Shown here: piece by piece, positions 4,755-54,299 of the stretch
How positions within the stretch are numbered: the stretch's first letter is position 1
Layout of the letters: each line of letters begins with the position of its first letter
Origin: an uncultured Flavobacteriaceae bacterium
Lineage (GTDB): Bacteria > Bacteroidota > Bacteroidia > Flavobacteriales > Flavobacteriaceae
Length of the DNA: 64,000 nt
Direction of reading: 5' to 3'
Assembly: GCA_964014735.1 (NCBI GenBank)
Contig: CAXHBH010000001.1
Location: 51,588-115,587 of the forward strand
Made by a program: the position numbers and the translations under genes
Notes under the pieces: generated by a model
What the model was told of the DNA's origin: nothing
What the model saw: only the letters and a program-made list of their open reading frames with translations
Databases searched by the model: none

Positions 4755-4828
4755 TCCTCCTTAGCTCAGTTGGTTAGAGCATCTGACTGTTAATCAGAGG
4801 GTCCTTGGTTCGAGTCCAAGAGGGGGAG
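4755..4828 (+). tRNA. tRNA-Asn (anticodon GTT)
   Basis: Cloverleaf folded by hand: acceptor TCCTCCT/AGGGGGA, D arm GCTCAGTTGGTTAGAGC, anticodon stem-loop CTGACTGTTAATCAG, T arm CTTGGTTCGAGTCCAAG. Confidence 0.9.
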
Positions 4829-4866
4829 CAGGTAGTAACCGCTACATCACACATTTTAAACCAAAG

Positions 4867-4892
4867 CCCACCCTGTAAGGTGGGTTTTTTTT
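4867..4892 (+). terminator. Rho-independent terminator after tRNA-Asn
   Basis: CCCACC-CTGTAA-GGTGGG hairpin followed by T8. Confidence 0.7.
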
Positions 4893-5084
4893 CATATTAG
4901 CAAAAACTCTTTTCAGCTAAATAGACTACATAAATATACGAAAAACATCAAAATTGGCAGTTGTCAGGCAGTTAAATTTAGTCTTACGTAAAACAAATAT
5001 TCCCTGCTATAAGTACCCAGGTGGTTTTATTAAATCAACTGAAAACTGGCAGTTAATTCTAAAGCCCTGTTAGAAATTTGTTTG

Positions 5085-5642
5085 TTACTGGCAAGCTGAA
5101 TCAGAAACTCTTCGAACTCCAGAACAATAAGCTTCGCCCCTATTATTATAAGTGAAGCCGTCACAACCGCAAACAGGTTGATATTCTTTAGTTGACGCAC
5201 AGGGATTAGGAACTTTATTGTAATCAATACAGTCGGAAAAATACTTATCAATAAATTCTCTATACTCTTCTGAACCAAACGACATACCTGCAATAACATC
5301 AATTGTAGATTTAGCGACTTTGAGGGCATCATTTGATGATTGAATATTAAATTTTGAACCATCCATACTGGTTAATTGATTGGAATCACATTTTAGCCTT
5401 ATGGTAGTGTAGAAATAATATCGAAGTACATATCCAATGGTTTGTTCAGTTTTACCATAAAGTTCATCAAAAACAGAGGCATCTGAAATTGTAGTCTCTA
5501 AAACTCTATGGGGGATATTAAAGTTATTGTTTTGTCTTAAAGCTTCTAGCTCAAAGATAGTGTCCTGAATTTTGACTGTTTCTTCTTGTTCACCCAGACA
5601 AGAATAAGAAGCCAAAGCAAAGAATAAAATAAGTTTTTTCAT
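5085..5642 (-). CDS. lipoprotein with C-terminal Kazal-like domain
   Basis: ORF 5085..5657, trimmed to MKKLILFFALASYSC (lipobox). The C-terminus CASTKEYQPVCGCDGFTYNNRGEAYCSGV...ACQ fits the Kazal cysteine/PVCG-DG-TY-N pattern. Confidence 0.6.
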   Translation of the reverse strand: MKKLILFFALASYSCLGEQEETVKIQDTIFELEALRQNNNFNIPHRVLETTISDASVFDELYGKTEQTIGYVLRYYFYTTIRLKCDSNQLTSMDGSKFNIQSSNDALKVAKSTIDVIAGMSFGSEEYREFIDKYFSDCIDYNKVPNPCASTKEYQPVCGCDGFTYNNRGEAYCSGVRRVSDSACQ

Positions 5643-5837
5643 ACCCAAAACTACCAAAATTTTACCAAAATCTTGTCTACCTGACGTTTTGTAACGTTTT
5701 CTTAAGAATCATTAAACGCAGTAAGTCATTAAACAGTAGGCACACTCCAATAGTGGGCTGTGTAAATAGGGACTGTATTTAGGCATAAGTTTCCTACTGA
5801 AAAATAATTTTATATTTTTATTATTCAAAATCATATT

Positions 5838-6596
5838 GTGAAAAAACTACTCTTACTCTCCGCTTTATTAATCTTTGCTTGTAGTAGTGATGATAGCTCT
5901 GATGATAATGAAAATAAATTACTTAATTCCAACGGAAGAATTGTACCAACAATAGTTTATGGCACACAAGAATGGAGTGTAGAAAATGCTGATTATACTT
6001 CATATTCAGATGGTACACCAATTCCTCAAGTTACAGATGATAGCGAATGGATAAGTCTAACAACTGGTGCTTGGTGTTATTATGATAACGACCCAAATAA
6101 AGGTAAACTATACAATTGGTATGCGGTAGCGGGTATACACGATGATGACCCAAATACACCAAATAAAGGATTTGCTTCAGAGGGATGGCACGTACCAAGT
6201 GACTCTGAATGGTCGATATTAGTAGAATATATGATTGCTAATGGATACAATTACGATGGCTCCTCATATTCTTTTAGTCCTTGTCCGCAAGTTAATAATA
6301 AAATAGCTGAATCTTTGGCTTCTAATTCTGGCTGGAATCCTTCAATAAACGAAGGAACACCAGGATACGACCAAAGCGCTAATAATAGTAGTGGGTTTAA
6401 TGCTTTACCAGCTGGTTATCGCGACCCTTATCTTGGTTGGTTTATGCTTGAGGGAGATAATGCGATTTTTATGACTTCAAGTGAGGACTTAAATGATTAT
6501 GCAAGAGACCGCACTCTAATTAATAGTTACCCTTTTTTAGTAGAGTCTGGTTGCTCAAAAACAGATGGTTACTCTGTTCGCTTGGTAAGGGATTAA
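5838..6596 (+). CDS. FISUMP (Fibrobacter succinogenes major paralogous) domain lipoprotein
   Basis: ORF 5838..6596 with lipobox LIFACSS. Motifs YGTQEWSVEN, GKLYNWYAV, GWHVPSDSEW and GFNALPAGYR are characteristic of the FISUMP domain. Confidence 0.75.
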   Translation: MKKLLLLSALLIFACSSDDSSDDNENKLLNSNGRIVPTIVYGTQEWSVENADYTSYSDGTPIPQVTDDSEWISLTTGAWCYYDNDPNKGKLYNWYAVAGIHDDDPNTPNKGFASEGWHVPSDSEWSILVEYMIANGYNYDGSSYSFSPCPQVNNKIAESLASNSGWNPSINEGTPGYDQSANNSSGFNALPAGYRDPYLGWFMLEGDNAIFMTSSEDLNDYARDRTLINSYPFLVESGCSKTDGYSVRLVRD

Positions 6597-6600
6597 TATT

Positions 6601-8055
6601 ATGAAAAAACTATTACTATTATTATTTATTCCTTTAGTCAATAGTGCTCAAATAATCCCTGAATATTCAGATTACAATCAAAATATTATTTGGGAAAGTG
6701 TATTCACAGAAGGTGACCCAGGAAAAGTAAATAGAGGTTTAGTAGATTCTGACGGGAATTTAGCTGTTGTTTTTATGCCTGATAATAAATCAAGAATTCA
6801 TAAAATTAATGGTCAAAACGGAGAACTAATATGGTCCATAACTATAAACAATACTGTAGGCTTTGGCATTACAGAAATTAATGATAATAACAGAGCTGAC
6901 TATATAGTTAGTGGTGGATCAGGGAATACACAAGAAAGGTGGTTGGCAAGGCTAAATGGAGATGATGGGTCAATAATATGGAGTCAGGATTATAATTCAA
7001 GCGGAAGCTCATCAATGTTTGATGGTATAAGATCAACTATTATAGGCAATGACGGATATATTTATGGCTCAGGATTCATTGGCGGAGACGAGTCTGATAC
7101 AATTTTTATTGTTTATGGTGGAAATGCGATGGTGATAAAAGTAAATCCCTCAAATGGACAGGAAATTTGGACAGCAATCAATAGTCAAACAGAATATGCT
7201 GTCTCAATTGTTGAATCCTCGAACGGAAATCTATTTTACGGATCAACTAATTACGAAGATGACCTGACTCTAACAAAGTTAAATAATAGCGGTAATGAAT
7301 TATGGACTCGTAATCTTTTGGGTACAGAGGCAATAATACCTGCGGATTTGGGTATATATAACGACATAATTTATTATGGCGGACATAGGGAAAGAGAGGG
7401 TAATGGAGAGCCGTTTGACTATTCGTCTATCAAAATTGATTTAGAGGCTAATATACTCTGGTCTAAACATTATGCAAATCCAAGAGGATACGATTTAAAA
7501 TATATTAGAAATGAATTATACGGAATAAAAATATCGGATGAAGGAATTTATTTGTTTGGGGGAACTGGGGATGAAAATGAGTCATATTCTGCTGTTAATG
7601 CTCCTTTTGAATCTTCAGATATTTGGAACGGATGGGTTTTATTTACTGATTTTAATGGCAATATAATTAGAAGTGATGTTTTTTGCCACGAGGAGACAAA
7701 TACTGCGACTGAATATGGAGATTTAACTGAAAACGGATATGTAATTTTTAATGACACTGATGCGTTTGGAGATACTGAAGTTGGTGTAATGAAGATTGTA
7801 AATCCAAGTTTAACAAATAATAGTTATAATGTTTTGAACTTGCTAGATTTTTTTCCAAACCCTACCACATCTCAATTGTCTTTAAACAGCGACAAAGACT
7901 ATGATATAGAAGTATACGATATGACAGGTAATAAAGTAATGGCACTTACAGGAAACACTATCAATATGGAACAACTGTCTACCGCTACATACATAGTTAA
8001 AGCAACAGACAAGTCCAACAACGAACAGTTAACCTGTAAGGTTGTAAAGAATTAA
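6601..8055 (+). CDS. secreted beta-propeller-like protein with T9SS type A C-terminal sorting domain
   Basis: ORF 6601..8055 with a signal peptide. It has repeated G-x-x-(I/L)W motifs (GELIWS, GSIIWS, GQEIWT, GNELWT, ANILWS). The C-terminal FFPNPTTSQLSL...YIVKATD...KVVKN is typical of Por/T9SS CTDs. Confidence 0.8.
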   Translation: MKKLLLLLFIPLVNSAQIIPEYSDYNQNIIWESVFTEGDPGKVNRGLVDSDGNLAVVFMPDNKSRIHKINGQNGELIWSITINNTVGFGITEINDNNRADYIVSGGSGNTQERWLARLNGDDGSIIWSQDYNSSGSSSMFDGIRSTIIGNDGYIYGSGFIGGDESDTIFIVYGGNAMVIKVNPSNGQEIWTAINSQTEYAVSIVESSNGNLFYGSTNYEDDLTLTKLNNSGNELWTRNLLGTEAIIPADLGIYNDIIYYGGHREREGNGEPFDYSSIKIDLEANILWSKHYANPRGYDLKYIRNELYGIKISDEGIYLFGGTGDENESYSAVNAPFESSDIWNGWVLFTDFNGNIIRSDVFCHEETNTATEYGDLTENGYVIFNDTDAFGDTEVGVMKIVNPSLTNNSYNVLNLLDFFPNPTTSQLSLNSDKDYDIEVYDMTGNKVMALTGNTINMEQLSTATYIVKATDKSNNEQLTCKVVKN

Positions 8056-8098
8056 ACCATAGGCACATTGCTCTCTTTTTGTACTGCTAATTTTAAAC
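8053..8098 (+). repeat. junction repeat copy R1 (TAAACCATAGGC... family)
   Basis: TAAACCATAGGCACATTGCTCTCTTTTTGTACTGCTAATTTTAAAC. Its first 3 nt are the stop codon of ORF 6601..8055. Confidence 0.85.
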
Positions 8099-8127
8099 TT
8101 TGAAAATAATTATATTTATAAATTACT

Positions 8128-8943
8128 ATGTGCCGATTTAGAATGTTCTTAAGAATACTTTTTTTATTTACTTTGATGACCCTTTCAGGGTGTAAAGACG
8201 GTCACATTTCAAATACAGAGGCTCAGTATTCAATTGTATTGATTGTAGGGCAATCAAATACCCATGCAGGAATTGGCATGAACCGTGAACTAGACGGTTC
8301 AGTAGATGGCATCAGTCAGCTTGGGCGCTTCGGTAATGACGATATGCAAATCATCAGGGCTGAAGAACCACTTCAACACCACACTAAAGATGATAACAAA
8401 ATTGGTTTTGGTTTAACCTTCGCAAAATTGCTTAAAGAATATTTAGATTACCCAAACCAGATTATATTAATACCGTGTGGCTTTGGTGGTACTGGCTTTC
8501 AAGGAAATCATTGGAATAAAGGGGATTATTTGTATTCAGATGCAGTTAAACGAGTAAGAACAGTTATAGATAATATCCCAGGAAGTGAATTGACTTCAAT
8601 CTTATGGCACCAAGGCGAAAGTGATGTGGGAAGTCCGTCCTATCAAACAGATTTAGATAATTTTATTTTAAATTTAAGATCTGACCTAGATGCCATTGAT
8701 ACTCCATTCATAGTTGGTGGCATGGTGCCATTTTGGGTTGATCAGACGACAGAAAGAATTAAACAACAACAAATAATAATGAATGTTGTAAACCTCCACA
8801 AAAATATCGGATATGCCAATCCCGAACTACCATTCCGCATTGAAAAACCAGATAACCTTGTAGATGTTATCCACTATGATGCCGCTGGACAAAGAGAGCT
8901 AGGGAAAAGATACTTTAATGAATATCACTCATTAGTTGATTAA
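8128..8943 (+). CDS. sialate O-acetylesterase-like (SASA/SGNH) carbohydrate esterase, lipoprotein
   Basis: ORF 8128..8943 with lipobox LSGC. It carries the IVGQSNTHAG (GQSN block) and ILWHQGESD motifs of the SASA/DUF303 family. Confidence 0.7.
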   Translation: MCRFRMFLRILFLFTLMTLSGCKDGHISNTEAQYSIVLIVGQSNTHAGIGMNRELDGSVDGISQLGRFGNDDMQIIRAEEPLQHHTKDDNKIGFGLTFAKLLKEYLDYPNQIILIPCGFGGTGFQGNHWNKGDYLYSDAVKRVRTVIDNIPGSELTSILWHQGESDVGSPSYQTDLDNFILNLRSDLDAIDTPFIVGGMVPFWVDQTTERIKQQQIIMNVVNLHKNIGYANPELPFRIEKPDNLVDVIHYDAAGQRELGKRYFNEYHSLVD

Positions 8944-9185
8944 GCCTTTATAATGGTAGTTGCTCAATTAAAGCTCCAGTTTCATTAAACTTTACTCAAA
9001 ATAGTTTGACTTCACATCCTTAGGCTTAATATTGTGAGTTTCTTTTCAGATATTATATCCCAAATTACAAACTAATTGTGTTACAATAATGGGCTACTCA
9101 AAATGTTTAGATATGTTAAAAAAAAGGTTAAATATTTTTTTGAGCACCACCATATAAAAACAACTAATATTTTTATATTTAGTTT

Positions 9186-9359
9186 ATGAAATTTTTAGAA
9201 AAATACTATCCTCTTTTATTAGCCTTTTTTAGTTTCTTATATTCAATATATCTATGGTTTAGAGGAAATGAACTAGAGGGAATATACGTAGGCCTTTGGC
9301 CAATAACAATCTTGGGTTTTGCAATAGCCTTTAGACAAAGACGAAAAGATTCAAATTAG
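9186..9359 (+). CDS. small two-TM membrane protein (57 aa), hypothetical
   Basis: My translation is MKFLEKYYPLLLAFFSFLYSIYLWFRGNELEGIYVGLWPITILGFAIAFRQRRKDSN. It falls below the track length cutoff. A TTATATTTA box lies 4 nt upstream. Confidence 0.35.
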   Translation: MKFLEKYYPLLLAFFSFLYSIYLWFRGNELEGIYVGLWPITILGFAIAFRQRRKDSN

Positions 9360-9364
9360 ACTTT

Positions 9365-9487
9365 ATGAATAATAAGTTAATGTTTATTGTAGGATGTATA
9401 ATCTTTGTGATATACAACTTCTTTTATTTTAAAATTGTTCTGAGACAGAAATTTGGTGATAAAAAGGATAAACCCCCCAAACCATAG
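9365..9487 (+). CDS. small one-TM protein (40 aa), hypothetical
   Basis: My translation is MNNKLMFIVGCIIFVIYNFFYFKIVLRQKFGDKKDKPPKP. The stop is the TAG inside repeat R2. Confidence 0.25.
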   Translation: MNNKLMFIVGCIIFVIYNFFYFKIVLRQKFGDKKDKPPKP

Positions 9488-9523
9488 GCATATCCTCTTC
9501 TTTTAGTTCTGCTACTGTCAATC
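9478..9523 (+). repeat. junction repeat copy R2
   Basis: CAAACCATAGGCATATCCTCTTCTTTTAGTTCTGCTACTGTCAATC. Confidence 0.85.
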
Positions 9524-9537
9524 ATTATATTTAAATT

Positions 9538-10083
9538 GTGAATAAATTAAGCTTTTTATTTCTTTTAATTTCAATTTTAATGAATGGCCAAAGTATTGAT
9601 ATAATTAACCCTGAAAATGGTGTTGGTGTAAATAATTGGAGTATAATTAATGATGATGTTATGGGTGGAGTTTCATCATCTAACATTACTATAAATGATC
9701 AGAATAATATAGTTTTCAGCGGTTTCTTATCACTTAAAAATAATGGCGGGTTTGCATCATCGAGATTAAATTACAGCAAAGAAACACTAGTGGGAGTAAA
9801 ATCTTTCAAAATTAAATTTAGAGGTGATGGGAATATATATAAACTCAGACTTAGGCAAAATAACAGACGCGCTTCTTACTCACATAGTTTCAAATCCTTG
9901 AGGGACCAATGGACAGAAATAAATATTTTAGTTACTGACTTTAAACCAACTTGGAGAGGCAATACTTACAATAATTATCCTGACTTACAAATCGATAAAA
10001 TAAATAGCATTGGATTGCAAATATCTGATAAGCAAGAAGGGGAATTCAAATTAGAATTAAAATACCTTAAAGCACTTTATTAA
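9538..10083 (+). CDS. CIA30 (complex I intermediate-associated protein 30)-like domain protein, secreted
   Basis: ORF 9538..10083 (GTG start) with a signal peptide. The WSIINDDVMGGVSSS and NNGGFASSR motifs are typical of the CIA30 family. Confidence 0.7.
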   Translation: MNKLSFLFLLISILMNGQSIDIINPENGVGVNNWSIINDDVMGGVSSSNITINDQNNIVFSGFLSLKNNGGFASSRLNYSKETLVGVKSFKIKFRGDGNIYKLRLRQNNRRASYSHSFKSLRDQWTEINILVTDFKPTWRGNTYNNYPDLQIDKINSIGLQISDKQEGEFKLELKYLKALY

Positions 10084-10110
10084 ATATTAATTAGAATATT
10101 TGTGATGTCT

Positions 10111-10156
10111 TAAACCATACACATATTCTCTTCTTTAAGTTCTGCTACCTTTAAAA
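10111..10156 (+). repeat. junction repeat copy R3
   Basis: TAAACCATACACATATTCTCTTCTTTAAGTTCTGCTACCTTTAAAA. Confidence 0.8.
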
Positions 10157-10184
10157 TAAGAGTTATATTTAAGCTATAAGAGAG

Positions 10185-10712
10185 GTGAAATCGGTTGGAA
10201 TTAATTATGATAGACTATCCTATGCGATTTTTTCTCCAATAGCAGGGGTTGCGTTAATAGCGGGAATTATAAAGAACGATTACCCATATGTTAATAATGA
10301 TCAATTCCTCGCCCTTATACTTTTTTTGTCAGTTGTTCTTACTATTTACTTTTTCTTGAAATCATTTAATGTATTGATTGTTGATTCGTTTGGTATTGAA
10401 CTAAAATATCTTTTGTTTCCTTCAAAAAGTATTAAAAAAAGATGGGCGCAAATAAATAATTATGCAATAGTCAGAATCAAAAGGGAGGGGGGCAAGAGAC
10501 AAATAACCTACACTCGCAGCGAACTTTGGTTTATTGATTCTAATGATATGGTATTATTTAAAACATACAAAAAAGGAAGAACAAATTTAAATCAAGCATT
10601 GAAAATGATTGAAAGATTCACAGATGAGAGTGTTATTGATTTAGAGAATACGGATATTTACTCTTGCTCAATAGGCAAGCAAAAGGTTATTTATAAGAGA
10701 CCCCTCACTTAA
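10185..10712 (+). CDS. two-TM membrane protein with possible bacterial PH-like C-terminal domain, hypothetical
   Basis: ORF 10185..10712 (GTG start). It has two N-terminal hydrophobic helices followed by a soluble domain. The fold assignment is a guess. The stop TAA is the first 3 nt of repeat R4. Confidence 0.5.
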   Translation: MKSVGINYDRLSYAIFSPIAGVALIAGIIKNDYPYVNNDQFLALILFLSVVLTIYFFLKSFNVLIVDSFGIELKYLLFPSKSIKKRWAQINNYAIVRIKREGGKRQITYTRSELWFIDSNDMVLFKTYKKGRTNLNQALKMIERFTDESVIDLENTDIYSCSIGKQKVIYKRPLT

Positions 10713-10748
10713 ACCATAGGCAAATCTTCTTCTTTTAACTTTTAATCC
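10710..10748 (+). repeat. junction repeat copy R4 (3' half diverged)
   Basis: TAAACCATAGGCAAATCTTCTTCTTTTAACTTTTAATCC. Confidence 0.75.
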
Positions 10749-10798
10749 TCTTTGTATGACAGGTGTAAGGTAATTATATATTATCCTTACATTTGATT

Positions 10799-11287
10799 AT
10801 GAATGAATTTAAGGTTTCTAGAAAGCTGTTTTTGAAGCAAAGTTTAGATGACGTTTGGGAAGTCATTTCTTCAAAAGAGTCTTTGGAACTTTTCCATCCT
10901 TATTGCTTAAAAAATAAGGTGATTTCTTGGGGTGATACTAAGGTAGATGAATTAGTATATTTAAATGGCTTAGTTTTTATTAGAGAATTTACCTCATGGA
11001 ATCCAAACCACGGCTTTGAATTAACCATTGGAAAGAGGGATGGAAAAAAATCAAAAGTCAAATGGGAAATTACAATGTCAAATTCGGGCTGTTTAATATC
11101 AATTTCAATTTGGCCATATAAGTCAAGTAAGGTTTCTAAGATATTATATCCCTTTGTGAATGTTTTTATCGTAAGACCAAAGTTGAAAAAGTATTTAAGT
11201 TCCGTATTGAAAGGACTAAATTTTTACCTAACCAATAGGACAGTTGTAAAAAAGAACCAGTTTGGGTCGCATTCGTGGTTTTCATAA
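10799..11287 (+). CDS. SRPBCC/START-like small protein, hypothetical
   Basis: ORF 10793..11287, with the ATG at 10799 preferred. The N-terminal pattern FKVSRKLFLKQSLDDVWEVISSKESLELFHP resembles SRPBCC ligand-binding proteins. The family call is weak. Confidence 0.45.
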   Translation: MNEFKVSRKLFLKQSLDDVWEVISSKESLELFHPYCLKNKVISWGDTKVDELVYLNGLVFIREFTSWNPNHGFELTIGKRDGKKSKVKWEITMSNSGCLISISIWPYKSSKVSKILYPFVNVFIVRPKLKKYLSSVLKGLNFYLTNRTVVKKNQFGSHSWFS

Positions 11288-11362
11288 AAAAGTCAAAAGG
11301 CGATAGAAAAATATGGAAAAAAAGGAAGAGCACGGGGTTATAGAAATGATATCAAAACTACC

Positions 11363-11408
11363 TAAACCATAGGCGTATCTTCGCTTTATAGTTCTGCTAA
11401 TTCTAACA
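11363..11408 (+). repeat. junction repeat copy R5
   Basis: TAAACCATAGGCGTATCTTCGCTTTATAGTTCTGCTAATTCTAACA. Confidence 0.8.
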
Positions 11409-11439
11409 CTCTTAACTTTAATTTCGGTATCTTGTTCAA

Positions 11440-11958
11440 ATGAAAAAATTAATCTTAGGTTTTATTATAGTAAATTTTTTTGCAACAGATTACATAAACG
11501 CCCAGCAATTGTCTAAAAACGATGTATTTGATGTATTGTCAAAATGGGAAGGTAAATGGAAAAATAGTGTGGTTTTTGAAGAATCTGTTTGGGTGTCTAA
11601 AAGTTTTGAAACTCGAGGGATAACAGACTCAAAGTTGATTCTTTCCAATAATTATATTGAAATGACAGCTTACAGTGGAAGTGAAACTAACAAACATATT
11701 GTTTGTTATGACCAAAATTCAAACCAGTTCAATAGATGGGAATTTAAAAGCGACAGTAGCAATACTTTTTGGACAGGAAAGTGGAATCAAAGGGAGAGCA
11801 CTATGACTTGGAGCTATATAGATTTTTCAAGTACTGGTATCAGCGGTGAAATAATTGAAAAGTTTAAGTCAGATGAAATAATCAATGTAAAAGTTATTAT
11901 GAAAGATAAAAATGGAAAACAACTGCTTCTAATAACTTCTAAAGCTCAAAAAATATAA
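11440..11958 (+). CDS. secreted hypothetical protein
   Basis: ORF 11440..11958 with a signal peptide ending INAQQ. I recognise no family with confidence. Its stop lies in TAAACCA, the first 7 nt of the repeat motif. Confidence 0.5.
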   Translation: MKKLILGFIIVNFFATDYINAQQLSKNDVFDVLSKWEGKWKNSVVFEESVWVSKSFETRGITDSKLILSNNYIEMTAYSGSETNKHIVCYDQNSNQFNRWEFKSDSSNTFWTGKWNQRESTMTWSYIDFSSTGISGEIIEKFKSDEIINVKVIMKDKNGKQLLLITSKAQKI

Positions 11959-12046
11959 ACCACGCTAAAAATATTAATTCACATATATCGATGATGCCCA
12001 CATAGGCTAAAGATAAACGCTACCTTATTTTTAGTATTTTTGTATT

Positions 12047-12643
12047 ATGAAAACAAAACATTTATTTTGGATTGTTCCCCTTGCAATTATTGTTATTTTA
12101 TTTTTTTCACTTTTTAGTTTTAATAACAGCGCTGTTCGAAAATTAGAAGCTGTTAAAACAAGTTTGTCAAATGTAGAGTCATCTTACCAGCGAAGAGCTG
12201 ATGTCATAACAGGACTTCTAAATACGGTTAAGGGTGCAGCAAACTTTGAAAAAGAAGTACTTACCGAAGTGGTTGAAGCAAGGGCAAAAGCAGGTCAAAC
12301 AAACATCAATTTAAATGACTTAAACGCCAATAGCATCAATCAATTTGCAGATGCACAGCAAGCTTTGTCAGGTGCTTTATCACGACTTTTGGTAACCGTG
12401 GAGCGCTACCCTGAGCTTAAGGCTACACAAAACTTTTTAGAATTTCAATCTCAGTTAGAGGGTACAGAAAACAGAATTAATGTGGAGCGCAACCGATATA
12501 ATCAAGCGGTGAATACATACAATACACACATAAAGGTTTTTCCAAATGCAATCTATGCAGACTGGTTAGGATTCTCTGAGGAATTTCAAAGATTTCAATC
12601 AAGCGAAGGCTCCCAAGATGCTCCAGAAATCAGTTTTGACTAG
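12047..12643 (+). CDS. lemA: LemA family protein
   Basis: ORF 12047..12643 with an N-terminal TM. RRADVITGLLNTVKGAANFEKE and VERYPELKATQNF...NRYN are typical LemA blocks. Confidence 0.9.
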   Translation: MKTKHLFWIVPLAIIVILFFSLFSFNNSAVRKLEAVKTSLSNVESSYQRRADVITGLLNTVKGAANFEKEVLTEVVEARAKAGQTNINLNDLNANSINQFADAQQALSGALSRLLVTVERYPELKATQNFLEFQSQLEGTENRINVERNRYNQAVNTYNTHIKVFPNAIYADWLGFSEEFQRFQSSEGSQDAPEISFD

Positions 12644-12649
12644 TCTCAT

Positions 12650-13096
12650 ATGGAATTAGCATCATTTCTCTCACAAGAACAAATCCAAGAGCTTGTAGTT
12701 GTAATTTCAAAAGCAGAGCTTTTAACTTCTGGAGAGATAAGACTACACCTTGAAGAGAAGTGTACAATTGACGCCCAAGCACGTGCTGTTGAAGTGTTTG
12801 AAACGCTTGGTATGGAGCATACTAACCTCAACAATGGTGTATTGATTTATATTTCATACGGAGATCAAAAATTTGCTTTATGTGGCGACAAGGGCATTCA
12901 TAAAAATCTTTCCAAACGTTTTTGGACTTCGCTTGGCAATGGACTAAGACGCGCCTTTAAAAACCAAGACTATTTTAAGGGAATCTCCAACACCATCATG
13001 GAATGCGGCAGGCAGCTAAGAGTACATTTCCCCTATCAACATGACGATATAAATGAGCTCGAAAATCATGTTACCTTTGAAGAAGATCTAACATGA
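12650..13096 (+). CDS. TPM (TLP18.3/Psb32/MOLO-1) domain protein
   Basis: ORF 12650..13096. It sits in the conserved position after lemA. GEIRLHLEE...NGVLIYISYGDQKFALCGDKGIH resembles the TPM/DUF477 fold. Confidence 0.7.
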   Translation: MELASFLSQEQIQELVVVISKAELLTSGEIRLHLEEKCTIDAQARAVEVFETLGMEHTNLNNGVLIYISYGDQKFALCGDKGIHKNLSKRFWTSLGNGLRRAFKNQDYFKGISNTIMECGRQLRVHFPYQHDDINELENHVTFEEDLT

Positions 13097-50668: not shown

Positions 50669-50750
50669 ACCTCGGTGGCGGAATTGGTAGACGCGCCGGA
50701 TTCAAAATCCGGTTCTGCAAGGAGTGTGGGTTCGATTCCCACCCGAGGTA
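50669..50750 (+). tRNA. tRNA-Leu (anticodon CAA)
   Basis: Hand-folded: acceptor ACCTCGG/CCGAGGT, anticodon stem-loop CCGGATTCAAAATCCGG, a long variable arm, and T arm GTGGGTTCGATTCCCAC. Confidence 0.9.
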
Positions 50751-50823
50751 CAATTTATCCCCAAGAATAATTTTTTATTTTTGGGGATAATTTTTTTTAA
50801 CTTGCTTTTCAAATATTTAACCA

Positions 50824-51642
50824 ATGAAAAAAGTACTCTTATTCTCCGCTTTATTAATACTTGGATGTTCTGAGGATGAAAACTCAAATATTCAAAATAT
50901 AACAAGTGAGAATGCACTGGTTGACACATTTACATACTCTTACATAGATAATGACACAAACTCATCTGATTATGGAAATCAAGTTGAGGTAATCGAGCAT
51001 TACAACTACATTGGAAATAAATTAGTTTCTATTGATATCTCTTTTGATGGAAATGAAACTATTGGAGCTTATAGTTTAGAATATAATGATGTTAATCAAA
51101 TTACAAAATACAATATCTAGGGAGGAGATTCAGCCGAATATGAATATGATGAATTTGGGCGTGTAATTATTTATACTTACACTGATGTAGATGATTTTCC
51201 TACCCCCAATATTAGTATTGGAAACTACACTTACAATCAAGATGGTACTGTATCATTTGCTTTTGAAACTGACGAAGATTCATCGGATGTTTATTATTTA
51301 GATCAAAATGGAAATATTATTAGAGTCACGAATGTATACAATACCTGGGATGGGTCTACACAGATTACCACCTATTTAGAATCAAGCTACGACAACAAAA
51401 ACAACCCATTTAAAAATGTTTTGGGAGAATCTGTTTTTGTAAGGTATGGTAGCCCCATAAGTTATGGTGATTATAATAATAATGTGATATCTACTAATGG
51501 TAACCCATGGTTTTACACTTATAATGAATATGATTTTCCTATAACCATAAATTCACCACTTGGACTTCAGGACACATCAGATGGGTATTGGAATTCCAAA
51601 TGGATAAATATTCAAGCAGATATAACTTACACAAGTTATTGA
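50824..51642 (+). pseudogene. lipoprotein gene with YD-repeat-like motifs, interrupted by a single in-frame TAG
   Basis: Track ORFs 50824..51120 and 51421..51642 are in the same frame. My translation of 51121..51420 has no stop, so this is one 272-codon frame with a TAG at 51118. It has lipobox LILGCS and AEYEYDEFGRVIIYTY right after the stop. Confidence 0.6.
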
Positions 51643-51715
51643 TTTAGTTGAATAAAATAAGTTAATTTTTCACTTTTATAAGTTTCTGTAAACTCTCTCA
51701 GCTTTTCAAGGTCTT

Positions 51716-52578
51716 TCAAGAAAAAGTTTGATAATTGGAGTACGTTGTGTACAAATTATGCCCACCACTAATATACTTATAATGTACTACTGCAACACCA
51801 TAACCCCCTTGATCATAAACATACTTTTCAATGGTCATACCACTGCTGGCATCTGATGTAACTGTTGTTTTTGTGTCTGTATTGTTGAATGCAGCCCAAT
51901 GGTTTAGGACTGTTTGTGCGCCCTTAAAATAATTGTTTCCAACATATGGAAGTGTGTCATCTGCAGTGCCGTGTAAGTGAACCATAGGCATAGGATGCGA
52001 GGGGGTTTTTGTACAGTCTAGCATGGTGCCTGAAACCGAAGCCACCGCCGCAAAGGTTTCACTTTTATAGTTGGCTAGCCCATAAGCGATCATGCCACCA
52101 TTCGAATAACCAGTAGCATAAATACGGTCTTTGTCTACGCTGTAGTTAGTTGAAAGTTCGTTAACAAGTGCTGCTATAAAGCCAAAGCAGTCCGCATCGC
52201 TTTTGTTGTCGCCCCCATTTGGGCGAGTATTCCAATGTGGAGATTCATCTAAATTACTGCCTATGGATACACCAAAATAAAGTTTTCACTTTCTGCTAGC
52301 GATCGCATGTCTGCATATATCATGTACTCGATCGCATTCCCGCCAAAACCATGAAAATTGAACATTAGCGGTATTGCGGTTGTGCTGTTATGGTTGCTGG
52401 GCACAAAAAGCACGTATTCCCGAGTGAGACTATTGTGTTCAAGGGTTAGCCTATTCTTATTCGCGGTGTTTGAGCCTTTGTCATTGTCTTTGCCAATTTC
52501 AACAGCGTTATGCGTTTCGTTACACCCCACTATAAAGAAAACGCTCATAAAGATCAAAAAAAAGATGCTTCTATTCAT
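51716..52578 (-). pseudogene. PHB-depolymerase-family (LpqC-like) esterase with one frameshift
   Basis: The N-terminal ORF 52261..52578 ends ...ENFILVYP*. The continuation GVSIGSNLDESPHWN...RIYATGYSNGGMIAYG (GxSxG)...HLHGTADD is open from 52285 in another frame and joins ORF 51716..52093. The indel must lie within 52261-52285. Confidence 0.7.
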
Positions 52579-52602
52579 TTCTTTAACGCCAGTTATACAT
52601 TT

Positions 52603-53037
52603 TTACACTGCCTTCAGCACATGGGTTACAACACCCCAGATGATAAGTTCATTGTCTTCTGTTACTTGTAGGGGTTTGTATTGTTTGTTTTCGGGCATCA
52701 GCCACACGCAGTCTTCGGCCACCTTGAGCCGTTTTACGGTAAACTCCCCATCCACAAAGCACACGGCAATTTTGCCGTCTTCAGGATCTAAACTGCGATC
52801 AATTACGAGCAAATCGCCGTCGTCTAGGCCAGCGCCTACCATAGATTGCCCTGCAACCCGCGCATAGAAGGTAGCCGCTTCGTTTTTTACCACAGCCCTA
52901 TCAAGGCTGATGCGCACTTCTTTAAAGTCGTCGGCGGGGGAGGGAAAGCCCGCCGAAATGCCTTCGCCGGCAAGCCAAACATCGGCTTTGTTGCTTGTGT
53001 CGGGGCTGTAAAAATGGAGGGTTGTTGCTTTTTTCAT
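52603..53037 (-). CDS. umuD: UmuD-like S24 (LexA-type) autopeptidase, translesion polymerase accessory subunit
   Basis: ORF 52603..53037. It has AGFPSPADDF, the Ser site GQSMVGAG and the Lys site FTVKRL. Confidence 0.85.
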   Translation of the reverse strand: MKKATTLHFYSPDTSNKADVWLAGEGISAGFPSPADDFKEVRISLDRAVVKNEAATFYARVAGQSMVGAGLDDGDLLVIDRSLDPEDGKIAVCFVDGEFTVKRLKVAEDCVWLMPENKQYKPLQVTEDNELIIWGVVTHVLKAV

Positions 53038-54299
53038 CTTACCGTAATAATGTCTTGAATATCTGTGGTGTAACGGGGCGATAAGTGGGCTTGTTTCATT
53101 TTAAAAGTTCTGCTCAGGTCTTGGTTGGCGAGTTTGATTTTATACGGGCCATACTTGCGGTGCAGTAGATCAATGCGCTTCATCAATGCGTCATGGCGGC
53201 TGTCTTCGCCATCAAATAGCGTGAGTTGTTGTGTGTTTTTGGGTACAATTCCCGTGACCATAACACCTGCTTTTTTATATTGAATACCATCTTTGAAAAT
53301 ATGTTCCAAACCCTTTAGGGCATACTTGCTAATGGTCAAACTTGACTGTGAGGTAAAGGGCATGGTAACCAACATTCCATTGCGGTACTGCGGCAAGTCA
53401 GGCATAAACGGATTGCTACGAACAAATACATATACAGCATGGCAGCTGCTGCCTTGTTTGCGTAGTTTTTCGGCACAAAGCGTTGCATAGGTCGATATGC
53501 GTTCGCGCACTTCCTCATAGGAAGTAATAAGTGACTCGAAACTGCGGGTAGTAGCAATGGCTTTTTTGGGGGAGGCTATCATTTCCATCGGAATTGTTGC
53601 GCTTCCTTCTAAGTCTTTTTTTAGGCGCAGCCCCACGACACTCATCTGTTTGCGTACCCAATTGTCACTTAGCTGGGTAAAGTCATAGGCGGTTTTCACT
53701 TCGTTAAGTGCCAACCGGCATGCGTGTTGACGACCAATGCCCCAAACATCTGCAATGGGTAGCCACTTGAGGGCCTTAATGCGCTTTTCTTCCGAATCAA
53801 TTACATAGACGCCTTTGGTTTTTTCAGCAAATTTTTTTGCCACACGGTTGGCTACTTTAGCAAGACCCTTGCTTGGGCCAAGTCCAATGCTAACGGGCAT
53901 GCCAGTCCATTTGCGCACACGCTTGCGTATTTGTTGTGCATAGGTCTCCATGTGATAGCGGTCAAAGCCGTCAAAATGTAAAAATGCCTCGTCAATGCTG
54001 TACACTTCTAGCTCAGGTGTAAACTGACGCAAGACATCCATCACACGCTGGCTCATATCACCATAGAGTGGATAATTGGACGAAAAAACCTGAACGTTGT
54101 ATTGTCTAAAAAAAGACGAAAACTTGTGTGCAGGCGCCCCCATGGGTAGTCCAAGGGCTTTGGCTTCGTTACTGCGCGCAATCACACAACCGTCATTGTT
54201 GGACAAAATAGCAATGGGCTTGTCGTTTAATGTGGGTTGAAAAATGCGCTCACAAGAAGCGTAGAAGTTATTACAATCGACTAAAGCAAACACATTCAA
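53034..54299 (-). CDS. umuC: Y-family translesion DNA polymerase (UmuC-like)
   Basis: ORF 53034..54299 (TTG start). It has FALVDCNNFYASCERIF, SNNDGCVIARS and YSIDEAF. Confidence 0.9.
   Translation of the reverse strand: MNVFALVDCNNFYASCERIFQPTLNDKPIAILSNNDGCVIARSNEAKALGLPMGAPAHKFSSFFRQYNVQVFSSNYPLYGDMSQRVMDVLRQFTPELEVYSIDEAFLHFDGFDRYHMETYAQQIRKRVRKWTGMPVSIGLGPSKGLAKVANRVAKKFAEKTKGVYVIDSEEKRIKALKWLPIADVWGIGRQHACRLALNEVKTAYDFTQLSDNWVRKQMSVVGLRLKKDLEGSATIPMEMIASPKKAIATTRSFESLITSYEEVRERISTYATLCAEKLRKQGSSCHAVYVFVRSNPFMPDLPQYRNGMLVTMPFTSQSSLTISKYALKGLEHIFKDGIQYKKAGVMVTGIVPKNTQQLTLFDGEDSRHDALMKRIDLLHRKYGPYKIKLANQDLSRTFKMKQAHLSPRYTTDIQDIITVR

Follow-up and report, generated by a model that had tools for sequence, protein, structure and literature searches.

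How does a run of small, unrelated genes come to be strung along one strand of a flavobacterial genome, with the same short sequence at one junction after another? The question is raised by a 64,000-nt stretch of DNA from an uncultured Flavobacteriaceae bacterium (assembly GCA_964014735.1, contig CAXHBH010000001.1, positions 51,588 to 115,587; this whole stretch is referred to here as the window), in which five direct copies of one repeat, R1 to R5, lie on the + strand and start at 8053, 9478, 10111, 10710 and 11363. An earlier note on this DNA had proposed that the repeat is an unrecognised recombination junction joining single gene units. The junction can now be recognised as the 3' end of a minus-strand tyrosine recombinase gene, and the proposal of recombination at this place, although inferred, fits that identity. 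We consider, with a probability of roughly 0.7, that the repeat is an att-like recombination site of a tyrosine recombinase family found in marine Flavobacteriaceae.

Both a repeat search and a profile reproduced the five + strand copies with the coordinates and start-to-start distances (1425, 633, 599 and 653 nt) previously described; in the repeat search they form family D2, with starts at 8054, 9479, 10112, 10711 and 11364. The conserved blocks of the repeat are AAACCATAGGC and, 15 nt further on, GTTCTGCTA. The 12-nt core AAACCATAGGCA, with up to two mismatches, has 24 matches in the window compared to 8.1 ± 2.8 expected, and the matches with no or one mismatch that extend into the longer motif are R1 to R5 only. 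Likewise, a 70-nt profile built from the copies of other genomes retrieves exactly R1 to R5 from the 64 kb (E 2e-13 to 2e-6), with 26–48 bits for the window copies versus 45–70 bits for typical ones.

The identity of the repeat is apparent from other genomes. One representative genome per species was scanned with the pattern AAACCATANNCNNATN12GTWCTGCTA, which yielded 58 stretches in 43 genomes, often on several contigs per genome. The matched genomes are nearly all metagenome-assembled genomes (MAGs) and single-cell genomes of marine Flavobacteriaceae, Flavobacteriales, Polaribacter or Formosa. The aligned copies stay similar rightward well beyond the first 44 nt, and in at least 13 loci the motif continues into an open reading frame (ORF) of 348–360 aa on the opposite strand. 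The encoded protein is a tyrosine recombinase (Pfam Phage_integrase, 3e-10 to 8e-12), whose closest solved structure is the XerC-like protein 4a8e (7e-8) and whose C-terminus runs from YSFRHSGA to a final GHSSLNVSLTYLRGLEVAELKEEDMPMV before the stop, also written as LYSFRHSGAIEIFKRTGS followed by KLQRAMGHSSLNVSLTYLRGLEVAELKEEDMPMV and the stop.

Read on the minus strand, all five window copies translate to this recombinase tail. R1 (8053–8097; 26 bits, E 2e-6) gives LKLAVQKESNVPMV and the stop (L-K-L-A-V-Q-K-E-S-N-V-P-M-V-stop), while R2 (9478–9521), the best copy with 48.5 bits and an E-value of 2e-13, gives LTVAELKEEDMPMVW (L-T-V-A-E-L-K-E-E-D-M-P-M-V) and has lost the stop codon. R3 (10111–10154; 34 bits) encodes LKVAELKEENMCMV and the stop (L-K-V-A-E-L-K-E-E-N-M-C-M-V-stop); a deletion has removed the site's right part, with about 45 nt missing in comparison with the full copy upstream of a homologous gene in locus L020. 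R4 (10710–10753; 27 bits) reads KLKEEDLPMV-stop and carries a 9-nt internal deletion, and R5 (11363–11415; 40.5 bits) reads LELAEL-stop-SEDTPMV-stop and keeps part of the right arm (TTCTAACACTCTTAAC). R1, R2 and R3 share GCTA as their end point. In agreement with the earlier note, the window encodes no integrase: tblastn finds tail fragments only, and a Pfam search of 40 window ORFs finds no recombinase.

This identity also accounts for the overlap of the repeats with the stop codons of the genes before them, which was found as it had been described. TAA 8053–8055 ends ORF 6601–8055, TAA 10710–10712 ends ORF 10185–10712, TAG 9485–9487 ends ORF 9365–9487, TAG 11370–11372 ends a 19-codon ORF that starts at 11313, and the stop at 11956–11958 again lies in TAAACCA. 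The left edge of the repeat is the palindrome TTAA, which carries the TAA of the recombinase on one strand and very often that of a cassette ORF on the other, and because of this the cassette stop codons overlap the repeats.

The full site measures about 72 nt and comprises the last ~24 codons of the recombinase gene with its stop; on the cassette strand it reads AAACCATAGGCATATCTTCTTCTTTTAGTTCTGCTACTTCTAAACCTCTTAAGTAGGTTAAACTTACATTTAT. Past these 72 nt, the recombinase genes run on as AGATGAATGCCCCATAGC and the cassettes as TATATTTGA and, a little further on, ATG, that is, a Bacteroidetes-type -7 box and then a start codon. The length of the gene fragment in the copies has a sharp mode at 23–25 codons (53/140), and copies in non-coding positions are at least 90% conserved at most of positions 1–62. 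In the recombinase genes, third-codon identity is 0.40–0.46 over the gene body and climbs to 0.90 over the final 12 codons, in a comparison where the proteins are ~46–53% identical over most of their length. The fragment-length mode, the conservation of non-coding copies and the third-codon identity point to a precise unit at the DNA level, rather than to random gene wreckage.

In public data, the recombinase family comprises as many as 3,220 clusters at 90% identity (E 1e-10 or better), with no annotation beyond 'integrase'. Plasmid and phage collections contain no homologue by tblastn at E 1e-10 or better, and the motif was not found in the viral contigs of IMG/VR. The contigs that carry the homologues P0001–P0120 are mostly 1–6 kb long, which fits assembly breaks at a repeated site. 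Altered C-termini occur in 35 of 115 full-length homologues, with the divergence setting in after D-M-P or after the catalytic T-Y.

With regard to the arrays themselves, the profile gives 159 matches in the 58 stretches, of which 39 hold at least two copies and 13 at least four. Each cassette is set off from the next by a copy, and all copies of a stretch lie on one strand, with a single exception. The 102 inter-repeat units have a median spacing of 638 nt (interquartile range 456–977, range 179–4194 nt). The clearest layout is that of a Polaribacter chromosome (L016; OX044349.1), in which 11 copies alternate with 11 same-strand ORFs before a convergent recombinase gene; in L055, five copies are followed by the recombinase. 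Among the 11 loci that hold both a recombinase gene and extra copies, the copies lie on the 3' side of the gene in 10, so that the recombinase stands at the end of the array and is convergent with the cassettes. The tyrosine recombinase that the earlier note had envisaged at array ends is thus present, as intact genes, in genomes other than that of the window. Of 101 inter-repeat units, 86 have their longest ORF on the strand of the repeat and thus opposite to the recombinase, and further examples are found in L141–L142.

The median cassette ORF is 156 aa long, and 51 of these 86 have a signal- or transmembrane (TM)-like N-terminus. The stop lies within the TAA or TAG of TAAACCATAG in 31 of the 86, while the start follows the beginning of the motif by a median of 105 nt. 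Of the cassette ORFs, 27% have the box TAnnTTTG in the 60 nt upstream, compared to 4% of random windows, and 63% have the looser TAnnTTT[GA]. The cargo is very mixed and includes the beta-lactamase fold, YadA head, SnoaL, GDSL lipases, OmpA and many DUFs: Pfam finds 49 families in 97 cassette ORFs of other arrays, the commonest (YadA_head, DUF2834, SnoaL_2 and GDSL) having three members each.

Certain individual loci deserve a brief description. The recombinase subtype P0019 has a conserved ORF of ~114 aa on the same strand, ~380 nt downstream of its gene. The cassette proteins of L010, a MAG labelled Saprospiraceae, and of L028, a Bacteroidia single-cell genome, are 96–99% identical. True repeat copies are also present on contigs binned as Aeromicrobium and Neomarinimicrobiota, the off-lineage loci including L017, L054 and L041. 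Mis-binned contigs are a more likely cause of these findings than cross-lineage transfer, and the match of L041, in Alphaproteobacteria, looks like chance.

The cassettes appear in ever different company. The 101 ORFs group into 76 families, 12 of which occur in at least two genomes, and in 28 comparisons of homologous cassettes between genomes a neighbour family was shared in none. Six units of the window (the Kazal-like unit, a pair of mini-ORFs, the 2-TM, SRPBCC-like and 172-aa proteins and the tails for type IX secretion (T9SS)) recur in other arrays, where they mostly have a repeat directly before or after them. The orthologous locus in L034, identified by an RseP that is 76% identical, has RseP and tRNA-Asn followed by a small array with different cassettes and a longer recombinase stub. 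The variation of gene content in repeat-bounded units suggested by the earlier note is therefore borne out, both by the different neighbours of window cassettes elsewhere and by the different array at the L034 site. Furthermore, contigs with the identical recombinase protein P0019 have different downstream gene sets, which diverge from a degenerate copy of the site onwards.

The window array itself seems to be static. Of the six metagenome contigs on record that carry the identical LemA, two have 99.97% identity over the island, and these two near-identical contigs show no sign of ongoing turnover. In a metagenome scan based on lemA, the nearest relatives (LemA 79–82%) have a tRNA-Arg upstream of lemA, and their contigs have neither the array genes nor the repeats, which shows no more than that the island is absent there.

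The island that contains the array is bounded on the left by a tRNA-Asn(gtt) gene (4755–4829, + strand; found by ARAGORN and Rfam), which marks a chromosomal hotspot, and on the right by lemA (12047). Its GC content is 0.29–0.33 across 8.8–12.2 kb, compared to 0.38–0.42 in the flanks. It starts ~70–80 nt 3' of the tRNA; an island abuts the 3' side of a tRNA in the same way in L034, L005, L017, L044, L051, L142 and L146, and the array starts shortly past a tRNA 3' end in about ten loci besides that of the window. The window array has five to seven units.

Directly past the terminator hairpin of the tRNA-Asn lies the junction CTTTTCAGCTA (4909–4919), a match to the middle of the repeat, which is also where right-half copies beside tRNAs begin. 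The leftmost unit starts at this junction and consists of a Kazal-like lipoprotein ORF (5085–5657) with its flanks (4899–5670); it is on the minus strand, opposite to the other window cassettes. This unit is 89.9% identical over 772 nt to a block in L005 (MAG MED-G59; 6778–7540 in repeat orientation), with 86% for the ORF, although the L005 block follows a tRNA-His and not a tRNA-Asn. In both the window and L005, the same junction, CTTTTCAGCTA, lies near the start of the shared block, just past a tRNA terminator. Kazal homologues are also located within the arrays of L055, L042 and L031. The next feature, R0 (5730–5800, + strand, beginning TAAACAGTAGGCACAC), is a probable decayed copy. The earlier suggestion of a degenerate copy at 5730 holds in so far as the sequence aligns, with gaps, to the full copy beside the Kazal unit of L005, at the equivalent position; it is absent from the profile matches and not significant on its own.

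A two-gene unit (5838–8055, + strand) follows, with a FISUMP lipoprotein (5838–6596; Pfam 1e-29) and a PQQ_2 beta-propeller protein with a T9SS sorting tail (6601–8055), which leads into R1. T9SS tails ending in KVVKN directly at a repeat are found in about ten other loci. Past R1 lies a SASA/SGNH esterase ORF (8128–8943, + strand; Pfam 6e-32), with the -7-like box TATATTTA at 8111, and then two mini membrane ORFs of 57 aa and 40 aa (9186–9487, + strand), which form one conserved two-gene cassette that ends at R2. The mini-ORF pair recurs at 76–96% aa identity in L058, L023, L004 and L044, and in all three of these loci with downstream sequence it ends 2–6 nt before a repeat, which suggests that the two ORFs encode real, functionally paired mini-proteins. 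The junction between the SASA gene and this pair has probably been lost; alignment reveals only a very weak vestige of a copy between them, at ~8985–9036.

R2 is followed by a CIA30-like ORF (9538–10083, + strand; Pfam 5e-39) with TATATTTA at 9526; an exact look-up of its protein found nothing on record. R3 precedes the ORF of a 2-TM protein without a Pfam match (10185–10712, + strand), homologues of which stand beside repeats in L018, L027 and L020, where the locus ends within the gene and identity is 83% for the first 30 aa. Between R4 and R5 lies an SRPBCC-like ORF (10793–11287, + strand; weak Pfam match, 2e-4) with the box TACATTTG at 10788. It has homologues in L013 (80%) and L056 (74%), and that of L056 has one repeat 84 nt before its start and another 27 nt after its stop. 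The last cassette ORF encodes a 172-aa secreted protein, again without a Pfam match (11440–11958, + strand); its homologue in L015 (66%) is located between two repeats, the second of which follows the stop by 2 nt. The folds that had been predicted for the FISUMP, PQQ_2 and T9SS-tail, SASA, CIA30 and, weakly, SRPBCC proteins are thus supported by Pfam, which leaves the 2-TM and 172-aa proteins unmatched.

At the position of the full copy in L015, the right end of the array carries R6 (11956–12005, + strand, beginning TAAACCAC), the vestige of a terminal copy. Part of it, ACATATATCGATGATGCCCACATAG (11980–12005), resembles the recombinase coding sequence just inside the site (ACATTTATAGATGAATGCCCCATAG); its alignment score was equalled by 5 of 300 shuffles and nhmmer gives no match. 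Tentatively, ACATATATCGATGATGCCCACATAG may be a stub of a deleted recombinase gene beside lemA. As for expression, each of R1–R4, but not R5, is followed by a box TATATTTA or TACATTTG, and because such boxes precede five window ORFs, the genes of the array are probably transcribed individually. Elsewhere in the window, 50669–54299 contains a tRNA-Leu(caa), several small ORFs without Pfam matches and then a minus-strand umuD/umuC-like pair (Peptidase_S24 at 52603–53037, IMS polymerase at 53034–54299), and may be another tRNA-adjacent islet.

The system that these observations suggest would work as follows. A dedicated tyrosine recombinase, distinct from IntI, would insert, excise and shuffle cassettes by double-strand site-specific recombination between the sites, and every cassette would bring a promoter of its own, with a -7 box of the Bacteroidetes type (TAnnTTTG or similar) just past the site. 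There are three candidates for the place of crossover. The half-site breakpoints TCAGCTA/TCTGCTA, at positions ~30–36, are the first: right-half copies beside tRNAs begin with (T)TCAGCTA, and GCTA closes many of the left-half copies. Another is given by the inverted arms TCTAAACCT and AGGTTAGA around CTTAAGT, over the codon of the catalytic Tyr. The variant recombinase tails would place it at the left end, after D-M-P, or at the T-Y codons. In the window, the recombinase would once have stood beside lemA and since been deleted, and the remaining sites would be decaying, with truncated right arms and two or three junctions almost erased. In view of the missing recombinase, the weak and truncated copies and the near-identical contigs with the same array, we read the window array as an 'orphan', fixed and in decay, whose accessory genes would be transcribed independently; it would correspond to an integron-derived cluster of attC sites lacking an integrase (CALIN). 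The broader picture, which we favour only by a little over its negation, is that of a widespread integron analogue in marine Flavobacteriaceae (Polaribacter, Formosa and many uncultured lineages), with a 72-nt double-stranded site in the 3' end of its own recombinase gene and arrays beside tRNAs that can reach a dozen genes or more, the window being a recombinase-less fossil array.

Several points weigh against the reading of the repeat as a recombination site. Since the search pattern came from the window, the loci are an ascertained sample, and recombination is deduced from comparative anatomy alone, no product such as a circle or an empty site having been observed. Site copies that flank homologous cassettes have a similarity of 0.76 and 0.79, versus a background of 0.78; because they match no better than random site pairs, they mark neither side of the site as the one that travels with a cassette. 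In L016, L055 and L046, the copy attached to the recombinase gene has one or two synonymous differences from the cassette copies, which makes it doubtful that every insertion simply replaces the tail of the recombinase gene. Additionally, about 20 of the 140 copies are longer stubs of 31–81 codons, and the P0019 metagenome contigs L155, L157 and L158 have tandem recombinase genes, each followed by its own convergent cargo. Given these stubs and tandem genes, part of the pattern could reflect the accretion of whole elements, followed by deletion. Extended to the whole pattern, the same observations would make the repeats inert pseudogene stubs, left when successive elements of recombinase and cargo had inserted at a tRNA-proximal spot and the recombinase bodies were later deleted. 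The frequent tRNA adjacency of the arrays would also fit, and islands of such a kind are known from tycheposons (bioRxiv 10.1101/2020.12.28.424599). However, independent deletions would produce neither the sharp 23–25 codon mode nor the 11 near-identical 72-nt units in one array, and stubs in non-coding positions would not remain conserved as they are. Moreover, the units measure merely ~640 nt, homologous cassettes do not keep their neighbours, and the window island has no partial tRNA-Asn repeat as its boundary, the best match in 4830–13000 being 17 nt with 3 mismatches, which is noise. We regard the pseudogene history as improbable, though not negligible; site-specific capture and whole-element accretion are not mutually exclusive.

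The earlier note had also named a generic promoter module or a 3' untranslated region (UTR) element as alternatives, and both are now disfavoured, even though a Bacteroidetes-type -7 box follows most copies. The repeat would then be a shared regulatory module (a promoter upstream element, an operator or a 3' UTR/terminator) copied along with genes, and its likeness to the recombinase tail would be secondary. The distance from motif to ORF start, the enrichment of TAnnTTTG upstream of cassette ORFs and the TATATTTA/TACATTTG boxes after R1–R4 could be read in that way. The -7 box, however, lies outside the conserved 72 nt, on the side that is specific to each cassette, whereas the conserved part is collinear with the recombinase coding sequence up to its stop codon. 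There is also no copy before any other gene of the 64-kb window and no terminator-like fold, and a regulatory module seems a very unlikely explanation. The least probable candidate, to which we give hardly any credence, is a known class of repeat: a remnant of a classical integron (CALIN), a miniature inverted-repeat transposable element (MITE), repetitive extragenic palindromes (REP) or clustered regularly interspaced short palindromic repeats (CRISPR). The same-strand array, the cassette-sized units and the conserved junctions do recall such elements. Nonetheless, when three window copies and either strand of the consensus 75-nt site are folded as single-stranded DNA, they do not fold better than shuffled sequences (minimum free energy -1.4 to -3.9 kcal/mol, z +0.2 to +1.1), which agrees with the lack of a stem-loop noted earlier and leaves no attC-like hairpin, and there is no R/L box symmetry. 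On the integron-integrase model TIGR02249 (integrase_gron), the recombinases of L033 and L008 score 22.6–28.3 bits with a cutoff of 265, and their best NCBIfam match is XerA_Arch (48 bits, cutoff 220). No terminal inverted repeats were detected at the copies in the window, the spacings are irregular, and Rfam at gathering thresholds finds three tRNAs in the window and nothing at the repeats. The fold, integrase-model, inverted-repeat and spacing tests refute these classes, as the earlier note had judged on its own grounds.

If the recombination-site reading is correct, it bears on a broader question. Bacteroidota are of major importance to the ocean's carbon cycle and in the gut, and to our knowledge the assembly of their flexible gene pool is poorly understood, with rAID-1, the recombinase-associated arrays of orphan immunity genes, as the only comparable system. 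Integrons are the textbook case of cassette-wise gene capture; they are essentially proteobacterial and built on IntI and folded attC sites. The arrays described here would represent an independent solution to cassette capture, in which the site is double-stranded and the recombinase belongs to another family. The recombinase tail as site provides a concrete 72-nt substrate and a candidate enzyme, so that gene capture by a marine group of ecological dominance can be tested directly, although the window array itself looks inactive. The site can also serve as a search key for cassette arrays in marine metagenomes, where the repeats probably break assemblies. It may offer a route to the mechanism of rAID and, if active, a gene-stacking tool for the genetics of Flavobacteriia.

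Among known systems, the Xer-dependent pdif modules of Acinetobacter plasmids have 28-bp XerC/D sites in alternating orientation. They too are gene modules bounded by short double-stranded sites of tyrosine recombinases, which are encoded elsewhere; the present arrays differ in their 72-nt direct repeats, chromosomal location and dedicated adjacent recombinase. With integrons and CALINs, the arrays share a tyrosine recombinase at the end of a same-orientation series of small, mostly single-gene cassettes of mixed function, a conserved bounding site of 60–75 nt, orphan arrays and variation between strains. Nevertheless, their recombinase is distinct from IntI, and neither a hairpin nor a single-strand fold is present at the site. 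The site lies within the 3' coding end of the recombinase's own gene rather than upstream of it, and the cassettes converge on the recombinase and appear to carry their own promoters instead of depending on a single Pc.

For a recombination site embedded in the recombinase coding sequence, as the putative site here lies in the last ~24 codons, a precedent exists in the SSV-type ('suicidal') archaeal integrases, in which the att site lies inside the integrase ORF and integration splits and inactivates int; these elements are whole viruses or plasmids that integrate into tRNA genes (PMC7253208). In the flavobacterial arrays, conversely, the site occupies the very 3' end, the gene adjacent to the array stays intact and small cassettes are inserted, with a few recombinase homologues having altered tails that diverge after D-M-P or T-Y. 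The tycheposons are flanked by partial-tRNA repeats and are several-kb elements with integration and replication modules (bioRxiv 10.1101/2020.12.28.424599). Streamlined marine genomes, tyrosine recombinases, tRNA-adjacent accessory islands and remnants of old insertions are common to both systems, whereas the repeat is here a recombinase tail and the units are of ~0.6 kb.

The closest parallel comes from the gut Bacteroidales, where rAID-1 consists of a recombinase followed by short low-GC genes with repetitive intergenic motifs, was called integron-like by its authors and has an unknown mechanism of acquisition (bioRxiv 10.1101/471110; 10.1101/2025.05.03.651265). Its definition demands a recombinase that shares over 44% identity with B. 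fragilis BF9343_RS08045 and at least two co-directional downstream genes (10.1101/471110), and its cargo is orphan immunity genes (SUKH and others). The phylum, the tyrosine recombinase with an array, the low GC and the repetitive intergenic motifs are shared. The analogy to rAID drawn in the earlier note therefore stands for the architecture, but neither for the gene orientation, which is opposite relative to the recombinase (84% convergent here, co-directional in rAID), nor for the cargo. The idea that the cassette proteins belong to immunity families was not supported by Pfam on the window and the 97 other cassette ORFs, where the cargo is heterogeneous and no immunity family is prominent: none appears among the 25 of the 49 Pfam cargo families that were listed, and the window cassettes are SASA, CIA30 and SRPBCC. 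A literature search for a description of such arrays in Flavobacteriaceae or Bacteroidota found none beyond rAID-1, the polyimmunity loci adjoining XerC/D (PMC3482391) and general integron papers; most subscription journals were outside the search, and the absence is not proof. The recombinase-tail cassette arrays look like an undescribed, integron-like system, of which rAID-1 is the nearest described relative in kind, set apart by the orientation of its genes and by its cargo.

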